A stretch of DNA of 32,658 bases, taken from positions 1 to 32,658 of the forward strand of contig JBDRCO010000126.1 in assembly GCA_043821645.1 (NCBI GenBank), given 5' to 3'. Both the position numbers and the translations under genes were made by a program. Position 1 is the first letter of the stretch; each line of letters starts with the position of its first letter. The stretch comes from Pseudomonadota bacterium. Lineage in GTDB: Bacteria > Myxococcota > JACRCW01 > JAFGSX01. Below are positions 13,350 to 23,568 of the stretch, in pieces. Under the pieces are notes generated by a model, which made no database searches, had not been told where the DNA came from, and saw only the letters and a program-made list of their open reading frames with translations.

Positions 13350-13418
13350 TCGCCCCCCCCGTCGTCACGACGCTCACTTTTGATTGCCGCGACGTCCTGG
13401 CTGGGGCAGCATGGGCAG

Positions 13419-15851
13419 ATGGGCGGCAAGCATGGCACGAGCGACGAGGTCACCGCCCGGCAGGAGCGCCTGTTCGCAGGTTACCATCTGCTCAATCGCG
13501 TCAGCATCTCGGACCATGCGGAGCTGTATCGCGCCCGGCAACCCTCTCTGGCCGAGGGCAAGCGCTTTCTGGTCAAGCGTTTCCGCAACAAGGATGGCGC
13601 GTTCAGCCAGGCCCTGTCACGCCGCTGCAGCAAGCTGCGTAGCCTGAGCCATCCCTTGATCCCTGCCGTTCTGGACCACGGGAATGCCCATGGTTACCCC
13701 TACATGGCGCGTCGCTACGTGCGCGGCATCTCCCTGAACAGGGTCGTACGCCAGCTGGCGCAGCGCGGTCTCGCGTTGCCCCTGGAGCAACTGATGACCG
13801 TGGTGGTGCGGGTGCTGGACGCGGTCGAGGTGGCGCATGTGGCGTCCACGGCGGACGGCATCACCACCTTGACCCACGGTGACCTGTCTCCCTCCCATAT
13901 CCTCCTTCGACTGGATGGCACACCGCTGGTGATTGGCTTCGAGTCCCCGCGCGGCGAAGAACCCCATGTGCCGGCCCGTCCTCAACTCGACATCTCCGTG
14001 CCCTCCGCGATCCTGTACAGCCACCTGCGCACCACCCACCTGGTGGCGACACAGGAAGATGACACCGTGTCGGAGCGGCGGCGGCGCCTGATCGACAGCG
14101 TGCAGCCCATCGTCCGCCGCGGCCTGGGTCTGGATCCCAAGCGCGCCTTTCGCAGCCCGCGCGATCTGGCCGACGCCTTGCGCGGGTGTCTGGACTACTC
14201 GGGCTTCACCAGCGAGCCCGCCGACCTGGTGCCGACCCTGGAGGCTCTGGTCGACGTCACCCAGTCCGGTGACACGAGCGGTCTGCGGCCCTTGCCCCTG
14301 CAGCAGCGGCGGACCAACAGTGCGCCGCTGTCCCCGGCCATCGACGTCGGGCTGTCGGAAGACGCACCACTAACCCGCTCGCCTCTTGACGAGGTGAGCG
14401 TCCCCCGCCGCCCGGCTGCGCCGGCCCCCGTGGACTTTGGGGAGCCTGTGCCGCAGCCTCCACGGGCGCATCCCTTGCCCGCTTTCGAGTGGATGGACGG
14501 CGACGAGGCTCTCGCCGAGGAAACCGCGCGCGCGATCAGCGAGTCTTTCTCGGACATCCTCGACCCCTTCGATGACGTGTCTGCGGAGTTCGAATTCACG
14601 GACATCTCCAATCCATTCGGCTTCGAGGCGTCGACGGATCAGGCGGCTCTGGCCGCGGCGCGGTCGCAGTCGACTCAGCGCATCGGAAATGTCCTGGCCG
14701 AGCTGGGTTTCGTCAGCTATCGCGATGTGCGCCAGGCACTGGATCGCCAGGGTCGAGGGGTGCGGCTGGGGGAGGCGCTGGTCCGGCAGGGTTCGATCAC
14801 CGAGCTGCAGCTGGTGCAGGCCCTGGGTGTGCTCCACGACCTGCCCGTCCTGTCCGATGCCCAGGTTTCGGAGCTGGTGCCGGATGCCGTGGCGGTTGCT
14901 GCTCTTCCTGCAACCTTCGTGGCCGCGCACCGAATTGTTCCTCTCGCCGTCGACGCAGCGTCGAGTGTTGCCCAGGTCCTCATGGTCGATCCCACGGATC
15001 GCGAGGCCATGGTCGAGGCTCGCGTCCTTCTCGAGGTGCAGTGCCTGCAGTCGAAGCTCGCAACCCGCGATGCCACGGATGCGTTGATTGCTCGCCTGTA
15101 TCCGTCGGGGTTGCGCAGCGAGATCTCCGTGGTCAAGGCCACCGTCCTGCTGGTCGATCCTGACGAGGGACGGCGGCGGGGCTGCGCCAATCACCTGCGC
15201 GGGGAACGCTTCGTGGTCGATGACGTCGCCACCACGGCGCGCGCGCGACGTGTGCTGGACGCGGCGGTGCCCGCAGCGGTGATCGTGTGTGTGCCGGATT
15301 CCGACGACGGTCTGGCCTTGCTCCGCGATTTTCGCGCTCGCGCCAGCGCCGCAGGCGCCTATGCGGCACTGGCTGGCAACCTGGAGCACATCTCCTATGA
15401 CCAGGCGGAGGCCATCGGAGCGGACCTGGTGCCACTGCCGCTGCGGGTCGAGTACGTCTCGGCCAAGATCCGCCGGACCCTCGCTTCCCGCGAGGAGGAA
15501 TCCAGGCCACGCCCGCCCGAGGAGGGTATCCGGGGCCACCTCGCGGACATGAACCTGCTGGAGTTGGTGCAGACCCTGCGTCTGGGTCGCCGGAGCGCGA
15601 CGATCACGATCGATACCCTGCTCGGGCAGGGCGTGGTGGTGATGCGGGACGGGAACATCGTGGACGCGCACTATGCCGGGCTCACAGGAGACAAGGCCTT
15701 CGTCAGCCAGGCCATGGTGAGCGAGGGCTTCTTCGTCGTCATATACCGCATCGCCGAGGACATTCACCGCACCGTCTTCGCCTCGACCGAGAGCCTGCTC
15801 ATCGAGGCGGCGCGGCAGACCTGGTTCCGGGACGACGAACCGGCCAGCTAG
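13419..15851 (+). CDS. Multidomain signalling protein: degenerate Ser/Thr kinase - Pro/acidic linker - MshEN - degenerate receiver - DUF4388
   Basis: FLVKRF, LSHPLIPAVLDHG, HGDLSPSHILL; RIGNVLAELGFV...RLGEALVRQGSIT; VLLVDPD receiver start; GHLADMNLLELVQTL...GNIVDA...ESLLIEA DUF4388 pattern. Start approximate. Confidence 0.82.
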   Translation: MGGKHGTSDEVTARQERLFAGYHLLNRVSISDHAELYRARQPSLAEGKRFLVKRFRNKDGAFSQALSRRCSKLRSLSHPLIPAVLDHGNAHGYPYMARRYVRGISLNRVVRQLAQRGLALPLEQLMTVVVRVLDAVEVAHVASTADGITTLTHGDLSPSHILLRLDGTPLVIGFESPRGEEPHVPARPQLDISVPSAILYSHLRTTHLVATQEDDTVSERRRRLIDSVQPIVRRGLGLDPKRAFRSPRDLADALRGCLDYSGFTSEPADLVPTLEALVDVTQSGDTSGLRPLPLQQRRTNSAPLSPAIDVGLSEDAPLTRSPLDEVSVPRRPAAPAPVDFGEPVPQPPRAHPLPAFEWMDGDEALAEETARAISESFSDILDPFDDVSAEFEFTDISNPFGFEASTDQAALAAARSQSTQRIGNVLAELGFVSYRDVRQALDRQGRGVRLGEALVRQGSITELQLVQALGVLHDLPVLSDAQVSELVPDAVAVAALPATFVAAHRIVPLAVDAASSVAQVLMVDPTDREAMVEARVLLEVQCLQSKLATRDATDALIARLYPSGLRSEISVVKATVLLVDPDEGRRRGCANHLRGERFVVDDVATTARARRVLDAAVPAAVIVCVPDSDDGLALLRDFRARASAAGAYAALAGNLEHISYDQAEAIGADLVPLPLRVEYVSAKIRRTLASREEESRPRPPEEGIRGHLADMNLLELVQTLRLGRRSATITIDTLLGQGVVVMRDGNIVDAHYAGLTGDKAFVSQAMVSEGFFVVIYRIAEDIHRTVFASTESLLIEAARQTWFRDDEPAS

Positions 15852-19226: not shown

Positions 19227-20566
19227 GAGACGATCCACACCACCTGCGGCGGGAGATCGCGCAGCGCCTGTTCGCCGCGACCCGCGCCCTTCCGACTTCA
19301 GCAACCTCGCGCATCGGGCGGACTGCCCTCGCTGCACTCCGCAGCGGCCACTACGTGTGGAGCCACGGCCCGAGCAAGAACCAGGCAGACGAAACCCAGG
19401 AAGAGTTCGACGTGGAGGCCCTCGCGGAGCTGGTGATGTCCATCGGTCAGCTCAAGGGCGTGGCCATGAAGATGGGGCAGATCCTGAGCTACATCGATGT
19501 GGCTGTTCCCGACTCTCTGCGCCAGGCCTTTGCGGCCCTGCAGGACCACGCGCCACCCATGACCGAAGTCCAGGTGCGCACGATCCTGAGTCAAGAGCTG
19601 GGTTCCAGGGCGGCCGAGGTTCTGGCGGGACTCGATCCCCAGCCACTCGCGGCGGCATCGATAGGGCAGGTGCACCGCGTCGTGCTGGGCGACGGCACCG
19701 AGCTGGCCATCAAGGTTCAGTACCCCGAGATCGAGCACGCCATTCGCAGCGACTTCAAGGCCGCGGCCGTGGGAACGCAGCTGCCCTCGCTGCTGCTACC
19801 AGGAGTGAACATCCAGGGTTTCGTGGCGGAGGCCAGGGCGCGTTTCCTCGAGGAATGCGACTACGTGCACGAGGCCCAGGCGCAGCAGGAGTTCGGGGTG
19901 CTTTTCGCGGACCACGACCTGCTCGTGGTACCCGCGATCTTTCCGGAGCTCTGCACGCGCCGGGTGCTGGCCAGCGCGCTGGTCCGGGGTCAGCACTTCG
20001 ACGCCTTTCTTGCCAGCGATCCTTCGCCTGAGCTGCGGGATCGCATCGGAGTTGCCCTGTTCGATTTTTACCTGGGCACCCTGTTCAAAAACGGCCTCTA
20101 CAACTGCGATCCGCATCCAGGAAACTACCTGTTCCTCGACGACAATAGGGTCGCGATGCTCGATTACGGCTGTACCCGGCGCTTCGATCCATCCTTTGTT
20201 CGCAAGATGGCGGCCCTGACCCGTGCCGTGCAGGAGGACGGTCGAGAAGCCCTGCACGCGGCGCTGGTGGACCTGGGCATCGTGCGGGCCAAGAAGCGCT
20301 ACGACGAGGCCACCGTGCGCCGACTGCTCCGCGCCTTCTTCGGGCCCATGCTCCATGATCGCACCGCGGCCATCGCCCTCGACGAGGTGCGAAGCATGCG
20401 CCAGGTCGTCGATGCCAAGCGGCAGATGCTCAAGCTGTCGCTCCCCGCCGAGTTCCTCTTCCTGTTCCGTATTCGCTTCGGCTTGATGTCGGTGCTGGCA
20501 CGGCTGGGTGCGCGCGCCAACTGGTACCAGCTCGAGCGTCAGGCCATCGAGGCATCGAGCGCTTGA
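19223..20566 (+). CDS. ABC1/UbiB/AarF-family atypical kinase
   Basis: LKGVAMKMGQ (KxGQ), AAASIGQVH, AIKVQYP, DPHPGN, LDYG. Confidence 0.93.
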   Translation: MRDDPHHLRREIAQRLFAATRALPTSATSRIGRTALAALRSGHYVWSHGPSKNQADETQEEFDVEALAELVMSIGQLKGVAMKMGQILSYIDVAVPDSLRQAFAALQDHAPPMTEVQVRTILSQELGSRAAEVLAGLDPQPLAAASIGQVHRVVLGDGTELAIKVQYPEIEHAIRSDFKAAAVGTQLPSLLLPGVNIQGFVAEARARFLEECDYVHEAQAQQEFGVLFADHDLLVVPAIFPELCTRRVLASALVRGQHFDAFLASDPSPELRDRIGVALFDFYLGTLFKNGLYNCDPHPGNYLFLDDNRVAMLDYGCTRRFDPSFVRKMAALTRAVQEDGREALHAALVDLGIVRAKKRYDEATVRRLLRAFFGPMLHDRTAAIALDEVRSMRQVVDAKRQMLKLSLPAEFLFLFRIRFGLMSVLARLGARANWYQLERQAIEASSA

Positions 20567-20675
20567 CCCTCGAATCCGGGATCCCGTTGCACCACGAGTT
20601 CAGCGAGGCAGGTCGGCGAGCTCGTCGGTCCAGGAACGCTGCGCCACACCCGGAGGACACCTCTCCCGCGCCACG

Positions 20676-21923
20676 TCAGGTCTCGTCGTCGTCGAGCTGG
20701 CGCCGGATGAAATTGGGCAGCGCGAAGGCGGCGGTGTGGATCTGTGCGTTGTAGTACTGGCACTGGGCCGCGATGTGCTCCGCGGCGTCTTCGTCGAAGC
20801 ACTCGACCTCGAGCGTGAAGTCGCTGGCGAGGGCAAACACCCATTGCCCGCCGGGATAGGTGGGTACCGTCGACAGATAGGGCCGGACGTCGCCGAACAC
20901 CTGCCGCAGGGTGCTGAACATGTTTCGCTGCTCATCGACCTGCAACCAGGGAGAGAGTCCCTGCGCCGCGAAAAGCCCGCCCGGTCGGAGCAGGTTTCGA
21001 CATCCCAGGTAGAAGGGCTTGCTGTACAGCACGCGACCCGGACCCAGGGGGTCGGTGGCGTCGACCAGGATGACGTCGTACTTCTGCGCAGAGTCTCGAA
21101 CGTGAACCATGCCATCGAGGTGGTGGATGTGGACCCGGGGGTCGCCGAGAGTGCGCGCGATGCGCGGGAGGTGCGTCCGGGACAGCTGCACGACCAGGGG
21201 ATCCAGCTCCACCAGATCCACGGCCTCGACATCGTGGTGCTTGAGCACCTCGCGGACGAGGCCACCGTCGCCACCTCCGATCACCAGCACGTGGGTCGGT
21301 GCCCCGTGAAGGAGCAAGGGCACGTGTCCCAGCATCTCGTGGTAGGCGAACTCGTCGCGCTCGGTGACGTTGACCACGCCGTCTAGCACCAGGGTGCGCC
21401 CCCACACCGGGTTGCGCAAGACGCGGATGTCCTGGAATCGGCTGCGCTGATGCGCGATTTGCTCGTCGACGGCATAGGAGAAGCCGAGCAGCAGTTCATG
21501 CGCGGCGGCCGGGTTGCGATGATACTCCGTGAACCATCGGACCTTGAGTGCCAATGGCTCGGTCTCCGCATCGAGATTGCCCGTTCCTCTGTCGTGCCTG
21601 GCCTGCACCACTTCCCGCGAGTCGAGGCGACGCTGGAGCACCGAAGCCGCGCGATCCACGTCGACCTCATCGTCACCCGTGAACAGGTCCACCGCCGCAA
21701 ACGCCGTCTCCGGACTCGTGTGAACGCTCAGGTGTGCATTGGAGGCCAGCACGATGCCTCGTATGCCAGCCGGCTCCATGGGGCCAAAGTGATGGTGCAG
21801 CGGTATCGCGCCGCTGCTGCGCATGGCTTCCAGTGCCGCGCTGCAGACCGTTTCCGAGTCGTTCAGGGGCCGCGGGTCACAGCCATGCAGATCGAGGACG
21901 GTATGTGTTCCACAAGCAGCCAT
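20676..21923 (-). CDS. speE: Fusion of degenerate S-adenosylmethionine decarboxylase (SpeD/SpeH-like) domain and polyamine aminopropyltransferase
   Basis: N-terminal GTHTVLDLHGC...HLSVHTSPE...AAVDLFT...RG; C-terminal FQDI, LVLDG, ERDEFAYHEM, VLVIGGGDGG, VELD, DATDP, PTYPGG; ATG 21923 with GGAGG RBS. Confidence 0.9.
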   Translation of the reverse strand: MAACGTHTVLDLHGCDPRPLNDSETVCSAALEAMRSSGAIPLHHHFGPMEPAGIRGIVLASNAHLSVHTSPETAFAAVDLFTGDDEVDVDRAASVLQRRLDSREVVQARHDRGTGNLDAETEPLALKVRWFTEYHRNPAAAHELLLGFSYAVDEQIAHQRSRFQDIRVLRNPVWGRTLVLDGVVNVTERDEFAYHEMLGHVPLLLHGAPTHVLVIGGGDGGLVREVLKHHDVEAVDLVELDPLVVQLSRTHLPRIARTLGDPRVHIHHLDGMVHVRDSAQKYDVILVDATDPLGPGRVLYSKPFYLGCRNLLRPGGLFAAQGLSPWLQVDEQRNMFSTLRQVFGDVRPYLSTVPTYPGGQWVFALASDFTLEVECFDEDAAEHIAAQCQYYNAQIHTAAFALPNFIRRQLDDDET

Positions 21924-22123
21924 CTCGTGTCCCTCCATGACGGGCAAGGCCACGCAGCGCTCGGGCACATGCTGTGCCCGGGACGCATACCGTGATCATG
22001 ATCTCTTGCCATGTGGATAGCAGAGACGTCCCGCCGTGACCAGTCGCAGGGCGCCGCAACTCTCCCGGTGCCGTCGCGAGCCAGCGTGCCCAGGTACAAG
22101 ATCGAAGCGATATGAGATGGGGG

Positions 22124-23230
22124 CTAGCCGCGGTGGGTGGGATCTCCGGGCACGAAGGCTGTGAGTTCATCGGCGCCAGGGACGGCGTCCTCGCCGGCCA
22201 GTTCGTACCAGCCCATGCGGTGTGACCGGACCAATAACTCACGATGGAAACGAAGACCGCCCCGGCGCAGTACCTCGAGGACCGCGCTGGCCCCGGCAGC
22301 GGTGCTGATCACACGCTGTGAGCCATCGGGGTCCTCGAATCGCACGGCCGTGTAGAGCTCGCGCGGGACCCGGACCTCGCCGCGAAAGTGCAGCGGGCCG
22401 CGACCGCAGGAGAAGCTCCAGCCATCTTCTCGCGCATCCTGACCGGTGTTGGACAGGTCCGAGACGATGCGCGGGAAGAAGTACGTGCGGTGCCGGTAGG
22501 TCACGCGCACGGAGCTGAGCCAGGGTGAGGGTTGGCCATTCAGCCAGTCCTGGACCTGAAATGCTTCGAGCCGGCAGTGCGGTCTATCCTCGAAGCTGTC
22601 GACGTGGCAAGCCATCCAGCGCCGCGGGGAACGCCGGCCCCACTGGTGCTGCTGCTGGGCCAGCGCGCCGCGCACATCGAGGACGCGCCCAGCGACGACG
22701 ATCTGTCCCCAGGTCGGCACAGCCTCGTTGGGGATGAGCATTTTGGAGGGCAGCCAGTCCACCTCGTACAGAGGCTCCCACAGCAAGGGACGCGCGGACA
22801 CGCGTCGCGGTTCCCAGCGCAGGTTCCAGCGCAAGGCTCCGTCGCTGATCATGCCCACCGCTCCAGCTTGGGTCAGCTCGCAGCCGCCAACTCGAACCCA
22901 GAAGCGGCGTCGACTGAAATCAAGCGAGGACAGGGCTTCGTGCTGCACGAACGAATGATGCTTTCCGGTCCGCAGATCATAAAACACGGCGACCACACGC
23001 AATCGTGGGGCGATGCGCGCCCGGGCTGCGAGACGGATCTCGTGCCGGATCCACAGGGCCGCCTGGTGTTCGGGCAAAGCCACCTTGACCAGGTAGGTCT
23101 CGAAGTGATCGCGGGTGCTGCCGTCCCAGCGAAACAGATTGTCGCGCTCGGACGAGGTGAGGCTGAGCCGGGGCCGCCAGCGTCTGTCCAAAAGTCCCTC
23201 GAGATGTGAACTCAGAGCCAGCGCTTCCAT
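22124..23230 (-). CDS. Hypothetical protein, probable tocopherol-cyclase/AttH-like beta-fold
   Basis: NLFRWDG...AALWIRH, LRWNLRW, QHQWGRRSPRRW, FEDPDG: Trp/aromatic-rich pattern reminiscent of that family. Function not established. Confidence 0.55.
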   Translation of the reverse strand: MEALALSSHLEGLLDRRWRPRLSLTSSERDNLFRWDGSTRDHFETYLVKVALPEHQAALWIRHEIRLAARARIAPRLRVVAVFYDLRTGKHHSFVQHEALSSLDFSRRRFWVRVGGCELTQAGAVGMISDGALRWNLRWEPRRVSARPLLWEPLYEVDWLPSKMLIPNEAVPTWGQIVVAGRVLDVRGALAQQQHQWGRRSPRRWMACHVDSFEDRPHCRLEAFQVQDWLNGQPSPWLSSVRVTYRHRTYFFPRIVSDLSNTGQDAREDGWSFSCGRGPLHFRGEVRVPRELYTAVRFEDPDGSQRVISTAAGASAVLEVLRRGGLRFHRELLVRSHRMGWYELAGEDAVPGADELTAFVPGDPTHRG

Positions 23231-23332: not shown

Positions 23333-23415
23333 GCCGGGATGGCGGAATGGTAGACGCCGGGGACTTAAAATCCCTTGTCCTCACGGGCGTGCGGGTTCGA
23401 GTCCCGCTCCCGGCA
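23333..23415 (+). tRNA. tRNA-Leu (anticodon TAA); CCA not encoded
   Basis: Acceptor stem GCCGGGA/TCCCGGC plus discriminator A; D-arm GGCGGAATGGTAGACGC; anticodon loop CTTAAAA; long variable arm; T-loop GTTCGAGTC. Confidence 0.97.
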
Positions 23416-23568
23416 CTTCCGGCTCGTGCCCTGGGAGCCATTCTCAGGGCGCGAAGGTGATGCGACGACGACCCAGGACTCACGAGAGCAAGGGGGAGTC
23501 TCCACCGAAGGTAGGCGCACCTCGCGCTCGCGCACGTGGAGGACACGCCAGGGACGCGGAGAGGCTGG

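Follow-up and report, generated by a model that had tools for sequence, protein, structure and literature searches.

Fusions of S-adenosylmethionine (AdoMet) decarboxylase (AdoMetDC) with an aminopropyltransferase are known from bacteria. They were described in Candidatus Pelagibacter (PMC11107197), and further ones come from a delta-proteobacterium and Candidatus Krumholzibacteria (PMC12803844). The tested fusions presented in these papers all have a functional AdoMetDC, and transferase specificity was determined by assay in PMC11107197. Animal spermine synthase is traced to a bacterial fusion in PMC12803844. Here we describe a gene from a 32,658-nucleotide (nt) stretch of DNA, called the window below (contig JBDRCO010000126.1, positions 1 to 32,658, assembly GCA_043821645.1), from a bacterium deposited as Pseudomonadota and placed by GTDB in the Myxococcota. 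Its product, P0001, has the same architecture as the bacterial bifunctional fusions, with a class 1b AdoMetDC, a linker and a transferase in one open reading frame, but unlike in the tested fusions the serine and cysteine of the decarboxylase are replaced by Ala63 and Gly83. A full-text literature search, limited to main texts, found no bacterial AdoMetDC-transferase fusion with a dead decarboxylase. Active fusions and degraded SpeD tandems were known; to judge from its residues, the new element is a dead decarboxylase in a bacterial transferase fusion, present in one lineage. The features of the gene are as follows.

20676..21923, minus strand: coding sequence of the fusion (P0001), 415 amino acids (aa), ATG at 21923-21921 and stop codon at 20676-20678.
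21931..21936, minus strand: Shine-Dalgarno-like GGAGGG, ending 7 nt upstream of the ATG (21923), read from the sequence.
21585..21905, minus strand: class 1b AdoMetDC-like domain (PF02675), residues 7-113, to all appearances catalytically dead.
21759..21761, minus strand: codon of R55, at the position of Ser55 of GVSG, from the alignment.
21735..21740, minus strand: codons of N62-A63, at the E62-S63 self-cleavage and pyruvoyl site, from the alignment.
21714..21722, minus strand: codons of H68-T69-S70, with His68 kept and Trp70 of HTWPE changed to Ser, from the alignment.
21672..21677, minus strand: codons of G83-D84, at the position of C83-G84 (catalytic Cys, FTCG), from the alignment.
21537..21584, minus strand: linker, residues 114-129, read from the sequence.
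21552-21554, minus strand: candidate internal start TTG (L124) with GGAG 9 nt upstream, read from the sequence.
21360..21536, minus strand: Spermine_synt_N (tetramerization) domain, residues 130-188 (PF17284, 43.7 bits).
20820..21353, minus strand: Spermine_synth catalytic domain, residues 191-368, intact (PF01564, 193.3 bits).

Like animal spermine synthase as described in PMC12803844, P0001 has an N-terminal domain (N-domain) that derives from a class 1b AdoMetDC, has lost the decarboxylase function and is fused to a transferase. In human spermine synthase (PDB 3c6k) the sequence similarity of this domain has been lost and the domain is needed for dimerization, whereas here the similarity is clear (E 5e-16 to PDB 1tlu). 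A degraded, non-cleaving SpeD domain also persists in a fusion in the SpeD-SpeDC tandems reported from Victivallis vadensis, other Lentisphaerota and Desulfobacterales (PMC10407285). There, however, the partner is a SpeD domain and the degraded form occurs in many genomes, while here the partner is a transferase and the form is known from one lineage. The trypanosomatid prozyme, as presented in PMC5201418 and PMC6221367, is likewise a dead AdoMetDC paralogue beside an active one in the same genome. It is a class 2 eukaryotic protein, conserved across trypanosomatids, that activates the enzyme, whereas ours is known from a single lineage and its predicted heterodimer is weak.

The N-domain is complete and easily recognized. 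PF02675 matched it with 80.6 bits (E 1.3e-22) over profile positions 1-107 of 107, and TIGR03330 with 81.0 bits, above the cut-off of 75.65. Residues 2-114 aligned with residues 2-114 of the Thermotoga maritima AdoMetDC (PDB 1tlu; E 5.1e-16), and because this alignment is gapless the T. maritima numbering can be applied directly. The codons AAT GCA CAC at 21740-21732 encode N62-A63-H64 in place of ESH. In addition, H68-T-S70-P-E stands for HTWPE, F81-T-G83-D84 for FTCG and G53-I-R55-G for GVSG. Ser63 has thus become Ala, Cys83 has become Gly and Glu62 has become Asn, while His68 and Glu72 are retained. Tested against the features of class 1b, P0001 has homology over the whole domain and keeps His68, but lacks Ser63 and Cys83. 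The best PDB match is 1tmi, which differs from 1tlu by Ala63, as in the fusion; it is the S63A form of the T. maritima protein, deposited as a proenzyme. According to PMC10407285, S63 forms the pyruvoyl group, H68 and C83 are likewise essential, and Ser-to-Ala mutants of a SpeD fusion lost processing and activity. Since Ser63 is absent, the N-domain would be unable to make the cofactor. Judged by its residues, the fused AdoMetDC domain is nearly certainly catalytically dead, with no self-cleavage and no pyruvoyl group. It is very improbable that the domain still decarboxylates AdoMet or another substrate through unusual chemistry. The TIGR03330 score above cut-off and the retained His68 and Glu72 would fit such activity, but there is no Ser at the sole known pyruvoyl-forming site and no Cys83, the T. 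maritima S63A form was deposited as a proenzyme, and even the AdoMetDC-derived arginine and ornithine decarboxylases would be expected to keep S63, H68 and C83, following their description in PMC10407285.

The changes are concentrated in this half of the protein. In an alignment of 62 fusions, 13 of the 36 N-domain columns conserved at 90% or more are altered in P0001, and none of the 51 such columns of the C-terminal part. Six substitutions, all of them radical, fall in the active site or next to it (S55R, E62N, S63A, W70S, C83G and G84D); seven others replace one hydrophobic residue by another (L4C, T40I, F49M, V54I, V57I, I60A and Y75F). A sequence-only reading of this stretch, made by eye, had pointed out the substitutions NAH, FTGD, GIRG and HTSPE in the self-cleavage and active-site motifs, an intact frame with a full-length domain, and the expected lack of AdoMet decarboxylation. 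Codons and gapless alignment agree with the first of these. The 415-codon frame translates with no internal stop, the whole profile is covered with no gap against 1tlu, and the loss of decarboxylation would follow from Ala63 and the missing Cys83, residues described as essential in PMC10407285.

The C-terminal half (C-domain) is a SpeE-type aminopropyltransferase that probably works, most likely as a spermidine synthase. It scored 323.8 bits with NF002010 (cut-off 260) and 292.8 bits with TIGR00417 (cut-off 249.55), so that the curated equivalog cut-offs are passed; the conserved residues are intact and PF17284 is present. Escherichia coli SpeE (PDB 3o4f) was matched with 235.5 bits, whereas the match to 3c6k, human spermine synthase, spans residues 149-253 (~105 residues) and gives 40.3 bits. 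The comparison with animal spermine synthase made in the sequence-only reading therefore holds for the architecture and not for the transferase, which is not of the spermine synthase lineage. Because this transferase is SpeE-like, P0001 is an independent parallel of the animal line and not a relative of it. P0001 has the architecture of a bifunctional fusion, with two domains in a single frame and a tree position within the fusion clade; of the two activities, the decarboxylase is missing, as read from the absence of the catalytic Ser and Cys.

The dead-motif allele is genuine and persistent, and is neither a chance event nor an assembly error. A contig of 2546 nt from run X1, the likely source, covers 20390-22935 with 2 differences. 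The same allele is present in two contigs of study X2 (21572-21766 and 21755-22167, with 1 and 0 differences) and in one contig of study X3 (21739-21896, 0 differences). The differences listed within the gene number 6, of which 4 are synonymous and the others are G344D and D411A; none falls in the N-domain. The sequencing runs listed as containing the stretch include none of RNA.

Among fusions, the dead state was found in P0001 only. We examined 200 relatives, which were the best 120 database hits and 80 genomic loci. The N-domain lies in the same frame in 111 of them (106 of the 120 hits and 5 of the 80 loci; some of these may duplicate each other), and Ser, His and Cys are all present in 110 of the 111, the window protein being the sole exception. 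Homologues sharing the substitutions, for which the sequence-only reading had called, were thus absent among the 110 other fusions, all of which have Ser and Cys. The scan of the genome collection gave mostly separate adjacent speD and speE genes (true fusions at 5 of the 80 loci), with a nearest match of 49% identity and none closer. Identity to the Desulfobacterota-type fusions is 44-50%, and the nearest, from metagenome bins, reach 48-50%. A collection of 5.8 billion protein clusters held no match above 50% identity to the fusion, and a homologue search with residues 1-125 alone returned the window protein itself only. No orthologue of the fusion was found in 40 relatives, which include 1 other genome of the family and 2 others of the class. 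Three more fused or adjacent forms from the same phylum have intact active-site motifs. Other AdoMetDC-transferase fusions were observed in small genomes of this phylum (locus L030 in G033:C71, and also G018, G009 and G040); their frames are at most about 376 aa, their motifs are ISESH, HTFPE and YTCS, and their length is like that of the spermine-synthase-type fusions described in PMC12803844.

When residues 1-125 were compared by HMMER with 1.84 billion representatives, 2292 hits were obtained at E of 0.001 or less. Degenerate domains among the best 150 of these are mainly the second domain of SpeD-SpeD tandems, and Ser and Cys are kept in all 11 other proteins of at least 350 aa. The best non-self matches of the dead domain are such tandems, whose second domains lack Ser or Cys. 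Several SpeD-SpeD tandems with a degenerate second domain were collected (P0121-P0126; in P0121 the first domain is degenerate too), as was a stand-alone SpeD homologue of 116 aa (P0264) whose Ser and Cys motifs read GAH and YDHN. Outside transferase fusions, dead class 1b SpeD domains are therefore no rarity.

The assembly (7.07 Mb, 94.7% complete) has a second AdoMet_dc match. This is a stand-alone speD on contig C76, about 123 codons long, in which GVSG, ESH, HTWPE and FTCG are all present and which scores 146.3 bits with TIGR03330. The active speD elsewhere in the genome that the sequence-only reading had asked for was thus located, as far as motifs and score can tell. Its orthologues have 69% identity in the family's one further genome and 47-54% in the class and phylum, and it therefore looks like a resident gene. 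It is convergent with dnaK and has a PEGA-repeat-like protein upstream (L001 20-1255). On contig C65 a pdaD gene (PF01862, 194.8 bits; TIGR00286 above cut-off) stands directly upstream of an agmatinase gene (TIGR01230, 233.8 bits); the pair is seen as a compact putrescine operon (G000 C65:72643-74089; L116, L114). The pyruvoyl-dependent arginine decarboxylase PdaD is chiefly known from archaea. As for a biosynthetic SpeA-type arginine decarboxylase, none of three PF02784 hits reached the cut-off. We considered whether the stand-alone SpeD might be a neofunctionalized arginine decarboxylase and set this aside as less likely, as pdaD already adjoins the agmatinase gene. By gene content, the stand-alone SpeD appears to complete the route from arginine through agmatine and putrescine to spermidine, which would make the fused decarboxylase redundant. 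The genome also holds a membrane-anchored aminopropyltransferase of the PRK03612 type (NF002956, 639.4 bits; G000 C55:1-1634, L004), cut by the contig end. Bacterial fusions of a membrane protein with a transferase-like domain examined in PMC12803844 were found uninvolved in spermidine synthesis.

Relatives without the AdoMetDC domain fall in the same clade. In a FastTree tree of 42 C-domains the window protein is sister to P0009 (support 0.96), and it lies with P0012 and P0013 within one clade of fusions (support 0.999), inside which the deeper nodes are unsupported. P0009, P0012 and P0013 are 313-320 aa long, lack the AdoMetDC domain and score above the SpeE cut-offs. When metagenomes were scanned with P0012, 4 loci were returned, and L117 alone was informative. 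On this contig the order is tRNA-Leu(TAA), an orthologue of the neighbor gene (51% identity), about 180 nt, and the transferase. The order in the window is the same, with tRNA-Leu, a 368-aa gene, about 200 nt and the fusion. By its position P0012 is an orthologue of the fusion that lacks the N-domain, so that the transferase of this lineage does not depend on the domain for its existence.

We then asked how far constraint on the domain has changed. Four indirect tests were used, since no relative is close enough for dN/dS (the ratio of nonsynonymous to synonymous substitution rates). Identity to clade members is 37-41% in the N-domain and 48-57% in the C-domain (ratio 0.67-0.79), while for the rest of the clade it is the N-domain that is more conserved (66% vs 57%, mean ratio 1.15). 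On a fixed tree the terminal branch of P0001 is 2.9 times as long for the N-domain (1.56) as for the C-domain (0.54); in 16 other sequences this ratio is 0.26-0.99. In the next test, 61 active fusions supplied the site rates and each pairwise distance was modeled as site rate x t1 + t2, where t2 is uniform over sites. The t2 values are approximate, since BLOSUM62 served as the source of the exchange matrix and the pairs, having one protein in common, are non-independent. For the C-domain (5 pairs) t2 was 0 and the rate-aware model was ahead by 44-48 log units; for active N-domains (7 control pairs) it was 0-0.05, again with the rate-aware model ahead. For the dead domain (5 pairs) it rose to 0.68-0.88, the uniform model was ahead by 6-19 log units, and adding t2 raised twice the log-likelihood by 23-40. 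With the 6 active-site columns masked the dead domain still gave 0.48-0.72 (gain 11-26). The stand-alone SpeD of the same genome gave 0.09-0.37 (gain 0.6-8.8). At the 32 slowest sites the dead domain departs from the clade majority at 15, compared with a mean of 1.2 in clade members; a Bacteroidota fusion differs at 5 and the far more distant stand-alone SpeD at 9.

Base composition was also altered. GC contents at the first, second and third codon positions (GC1/GC2/GC3) are 71.9/50.0/72.8 in the dead domain, 66.7/41.5/81.3 in the stand-alone SpeD and 73.2/38.7/84.7 in the C-domain, so that the contrast between codon positions is flattened in the dead domain, which contains no Lys and no Tyr. 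A GC3 as low was found in 1 of 1148 windows of 114 codons from 16 genes. The low GC3 is only suggestive as a signal of relaxation. Taken together, the former constraints have largely been lost across the domain, beyond the catalytic residues.

We consider it somewhat more probable than not that P0001 carries a redundant domain under relaxed constraint, whose frame is preserved by the need to translate through it to reach the transferase. The stand-alone SpeD (C76) would supply decarboxylated AdoMet, and pdaD with agmatinase (C65) would supply putrescine. We infer that the fused decarboxylase became redundant in this way and then lost its catalytic and substrate-site residues. The dead domain would now evolve under relaxed constraint while still being translated from the upstream ATG, and the need to read through it would purge frameshifts and stops and keep it foldable. 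The sister lineages would already have deleted the domain. The intact frame is no evidence of function, because a frameshift or stop in the domain would destroy a transferase whose translation begins at the upstream ATG. Escape would be possible only by an in-frame deletion or a new internal start, and the domain-less relatives look like the result of that. The sequence-only reading had set simple decay against its own proposal, to be recognized by close homologues that all keep ESH and FTC and by neutral evolution of this copy. The homologues do keep them (110 of 110). Neutrality was borne out in part: the branch ratio of 2.9, the near-uniform changes and the flattened GC contrast point to it, and the conservative replacements described next do not.

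Several observations weigh against relaxed constraint as a full account. With the six active-site columns set aside, the 24 changes at well-defined columns average a BLOSUM62 score of +0.17, compared with -0.48 for a null of random single-nucleotide neighbors (p 0.04), and the 16 slow-site changes have a mean of +0.50 (p 0.02). Means in four active homologues are similar to that of the dead domain. The 113 codons are free of indels, and a good Shine-Dalgarno sequence precedes the upstream ATG. The first-114-codon windows of other genes span GC3 71.9-89.5, and the low GC3 of the domain is not unique. In a complex prediction, residues 1-120 of the fusion paired with the stand-alone SpeD scored 0.60 and the best control 0.30, a weak signal. 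Population single-nucleotide polymorphisms (6 in the gene) are too few for pN/pS, the corresponding polymorphism ratio, and the relatives are all too distant for dN/dS on the domain. Moreover, neutral evolution over the full length of this long branch would have left the domain unrecognizable; either it would have died recently, towards the end of the branch, or some constraint, weaker and flatter, would persist. The conservative replacements fit a retained structural role as well. Because they are conservative, the domain seems to have evolved as a translated, foldable protein, and relaxed constraint can accommodate this too, since a misfolding N-terminal passenger would harm the transferase.

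A retained non-catalytic job, as a dimerization or scaffold module or as a prozyme-like partner of the stand-alone SpeD, is possible but clearly less probable. In the partner version the domain would regulate SpeD, or SpeD would hand decarboxylated AdoMet directly to the fused transferase. The full-length gapless domain with start codon and Shine-Dalgarno sequence in place, the conservative replacements outside the active site, the confinement of radical changes to residues 55, 62, 63, 70, 83 and 84, the active paralogue in the same genome and the Atlas model of the whole protein (mean predicted local distance difference test, pLDDT, 0.86) all suit such a role. There is also precedent, as the N-domain of human spermine synthase is described as essential for dimer formation (PMC12803844) and the trypanosome prozyme is a partner of this sort (PMC5201418). 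However, the dead state is limited to a single lineage (0 of 110 other fusions; 0 of 11 other proteins of at least 350 aa among the 150 best representatives), three domain-less clade members including the positional orthologue indicate that the transferase works without the domain, relaxation extends beyond the active site (masked t2 0.48-0.72; 15 of 32 slowest sites changed), the codon-position GC contrast is flattened, and the transferase has its own SpeE-type oligomerization domain (PF17284). Retention as a structural or regulatory module, which the sequence-only reading had proposed, is therefore disfavored by the long branch, the near-uniform changes and the domain-less clade members. As for its prozyme-like variant, an apparently active SpeD does exist elsewhere in the genome, and the heterodimer with it was predicted with a weak score only. 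Among 157 solved complexes 116 reach the mark used for complex scores, as do 2 among 215 mismatches; only 18 of the 157 solved complexes, but both passing mismatches, scored 0.60 or less. The N-domain/SpeD runs showed at least 87% contact agreement and a partner pLDDT of at least 78. The score may come from the predictor's memory of solved class 1b homodimers. As in a prozyme, dead and active paralogues share one genome, while conservation across related lineages was not found. A bacterial prozyme, forming a heterodimer with the stand-alone SpeD while tethered to an aminopropyltransferase, is rated as unlikely.

We also regard as unlikely that translation begins further in, at TTG L124 or at GTG V105/V106 (two codons inside the N-domain just before the linker), and leaves the N-domain untranslated or only rarely translated. 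The upstream 370 nt would then be a decaying leader, open by chance in a GC-rich genome. A start at L124 gives a SpeE of the usual length, the starts of P0009 and P0012 lie in comparable positions, the GC3 of 72.8 is under all but 1 of the 1148 windows, and long spurious open frames are common in the window. Yet 113 codons have passed without a frameshift or indel despite heavy substitution, the replacements are conservative, which is not expected of untranslated DNA, a strong Shine-Dalgarno sequence stands ahead of the upstream ATG, and the start codon is in register with that of the family in the alignment. Low GC3 was rejected as proof of non-translation, as first-114-codon windows of other genes fall to 71.9.

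The surroundings of the gene are otherwise poor in related functions. No polyamine gene besides the fusion was found in the window, and an Rfam scan gave the tRNA as its sole match. A scan of 20400-22300 detected no promoter-like site and one terminator-like site, within the neighbor gene. The two features of the shared locus are as follows.

22124..23230, minus strand: upstream neighbor, 368 aa, with a tocopherol-cyclase-like fold (Atlas template-modeling score, TM, 0.81 to PF14249 clusters).
23333..23416, plus strand: tRNA-Leu(TAA), a conserved landmark of this locus that recurs in L117 and G001.

The 368-aa neighbor has no Pfam or NCBIfam match. Its Atlas model has a predicted TM (pTM) of 0.83, and homologues occur in 105 of 401 genomes of the phylum. 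It stands beside tRNA-Leu(TAA) in three lineages and before an aminopropyltransferase in two of those; a functional tie to polyamines is not evident. In G001 the tRNA and the neighbor gene are kept, a PLD-like gene comes next and no transferase is present there. Because the transferase is found in the window and L117 but not in G001, the tRNA-Leu locus may be a site of gene gain or loss. The window further contains a DUF4388/MshEN protein gene (13380-15851, plus strand).

These results bear on annotation. The dead domain passes the NCBIfam cut-off for AdoMetDC, and the protein would therefore be called bifunctional automatically. Should the prozyme reading prove true, decarboxylated AdoMet would be channeled to the adjacent transferase, or SpeD would be tuned by the transferase, and the protein would be a bacterial counterpart of the trypanosome prozyme and a first step towards animal spermine synthase. 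Ordinary decay in one lineage is, however, the most likely reading, and as it concerns a single lineage the interest of the case is moderate. In the account given in PMC12803844, animal spermine synthase derives from a bacterial fusion in which the decarboxylase half lost its activity and took on a new use in dimerization. The gene described here is a bacterial fusion in a dead yet still recognizable state, and its sister genes illustrate the other outcome, deletion. It offers a system for asking whether a dead domain is merely trapped in frame or is gaining a structural role.

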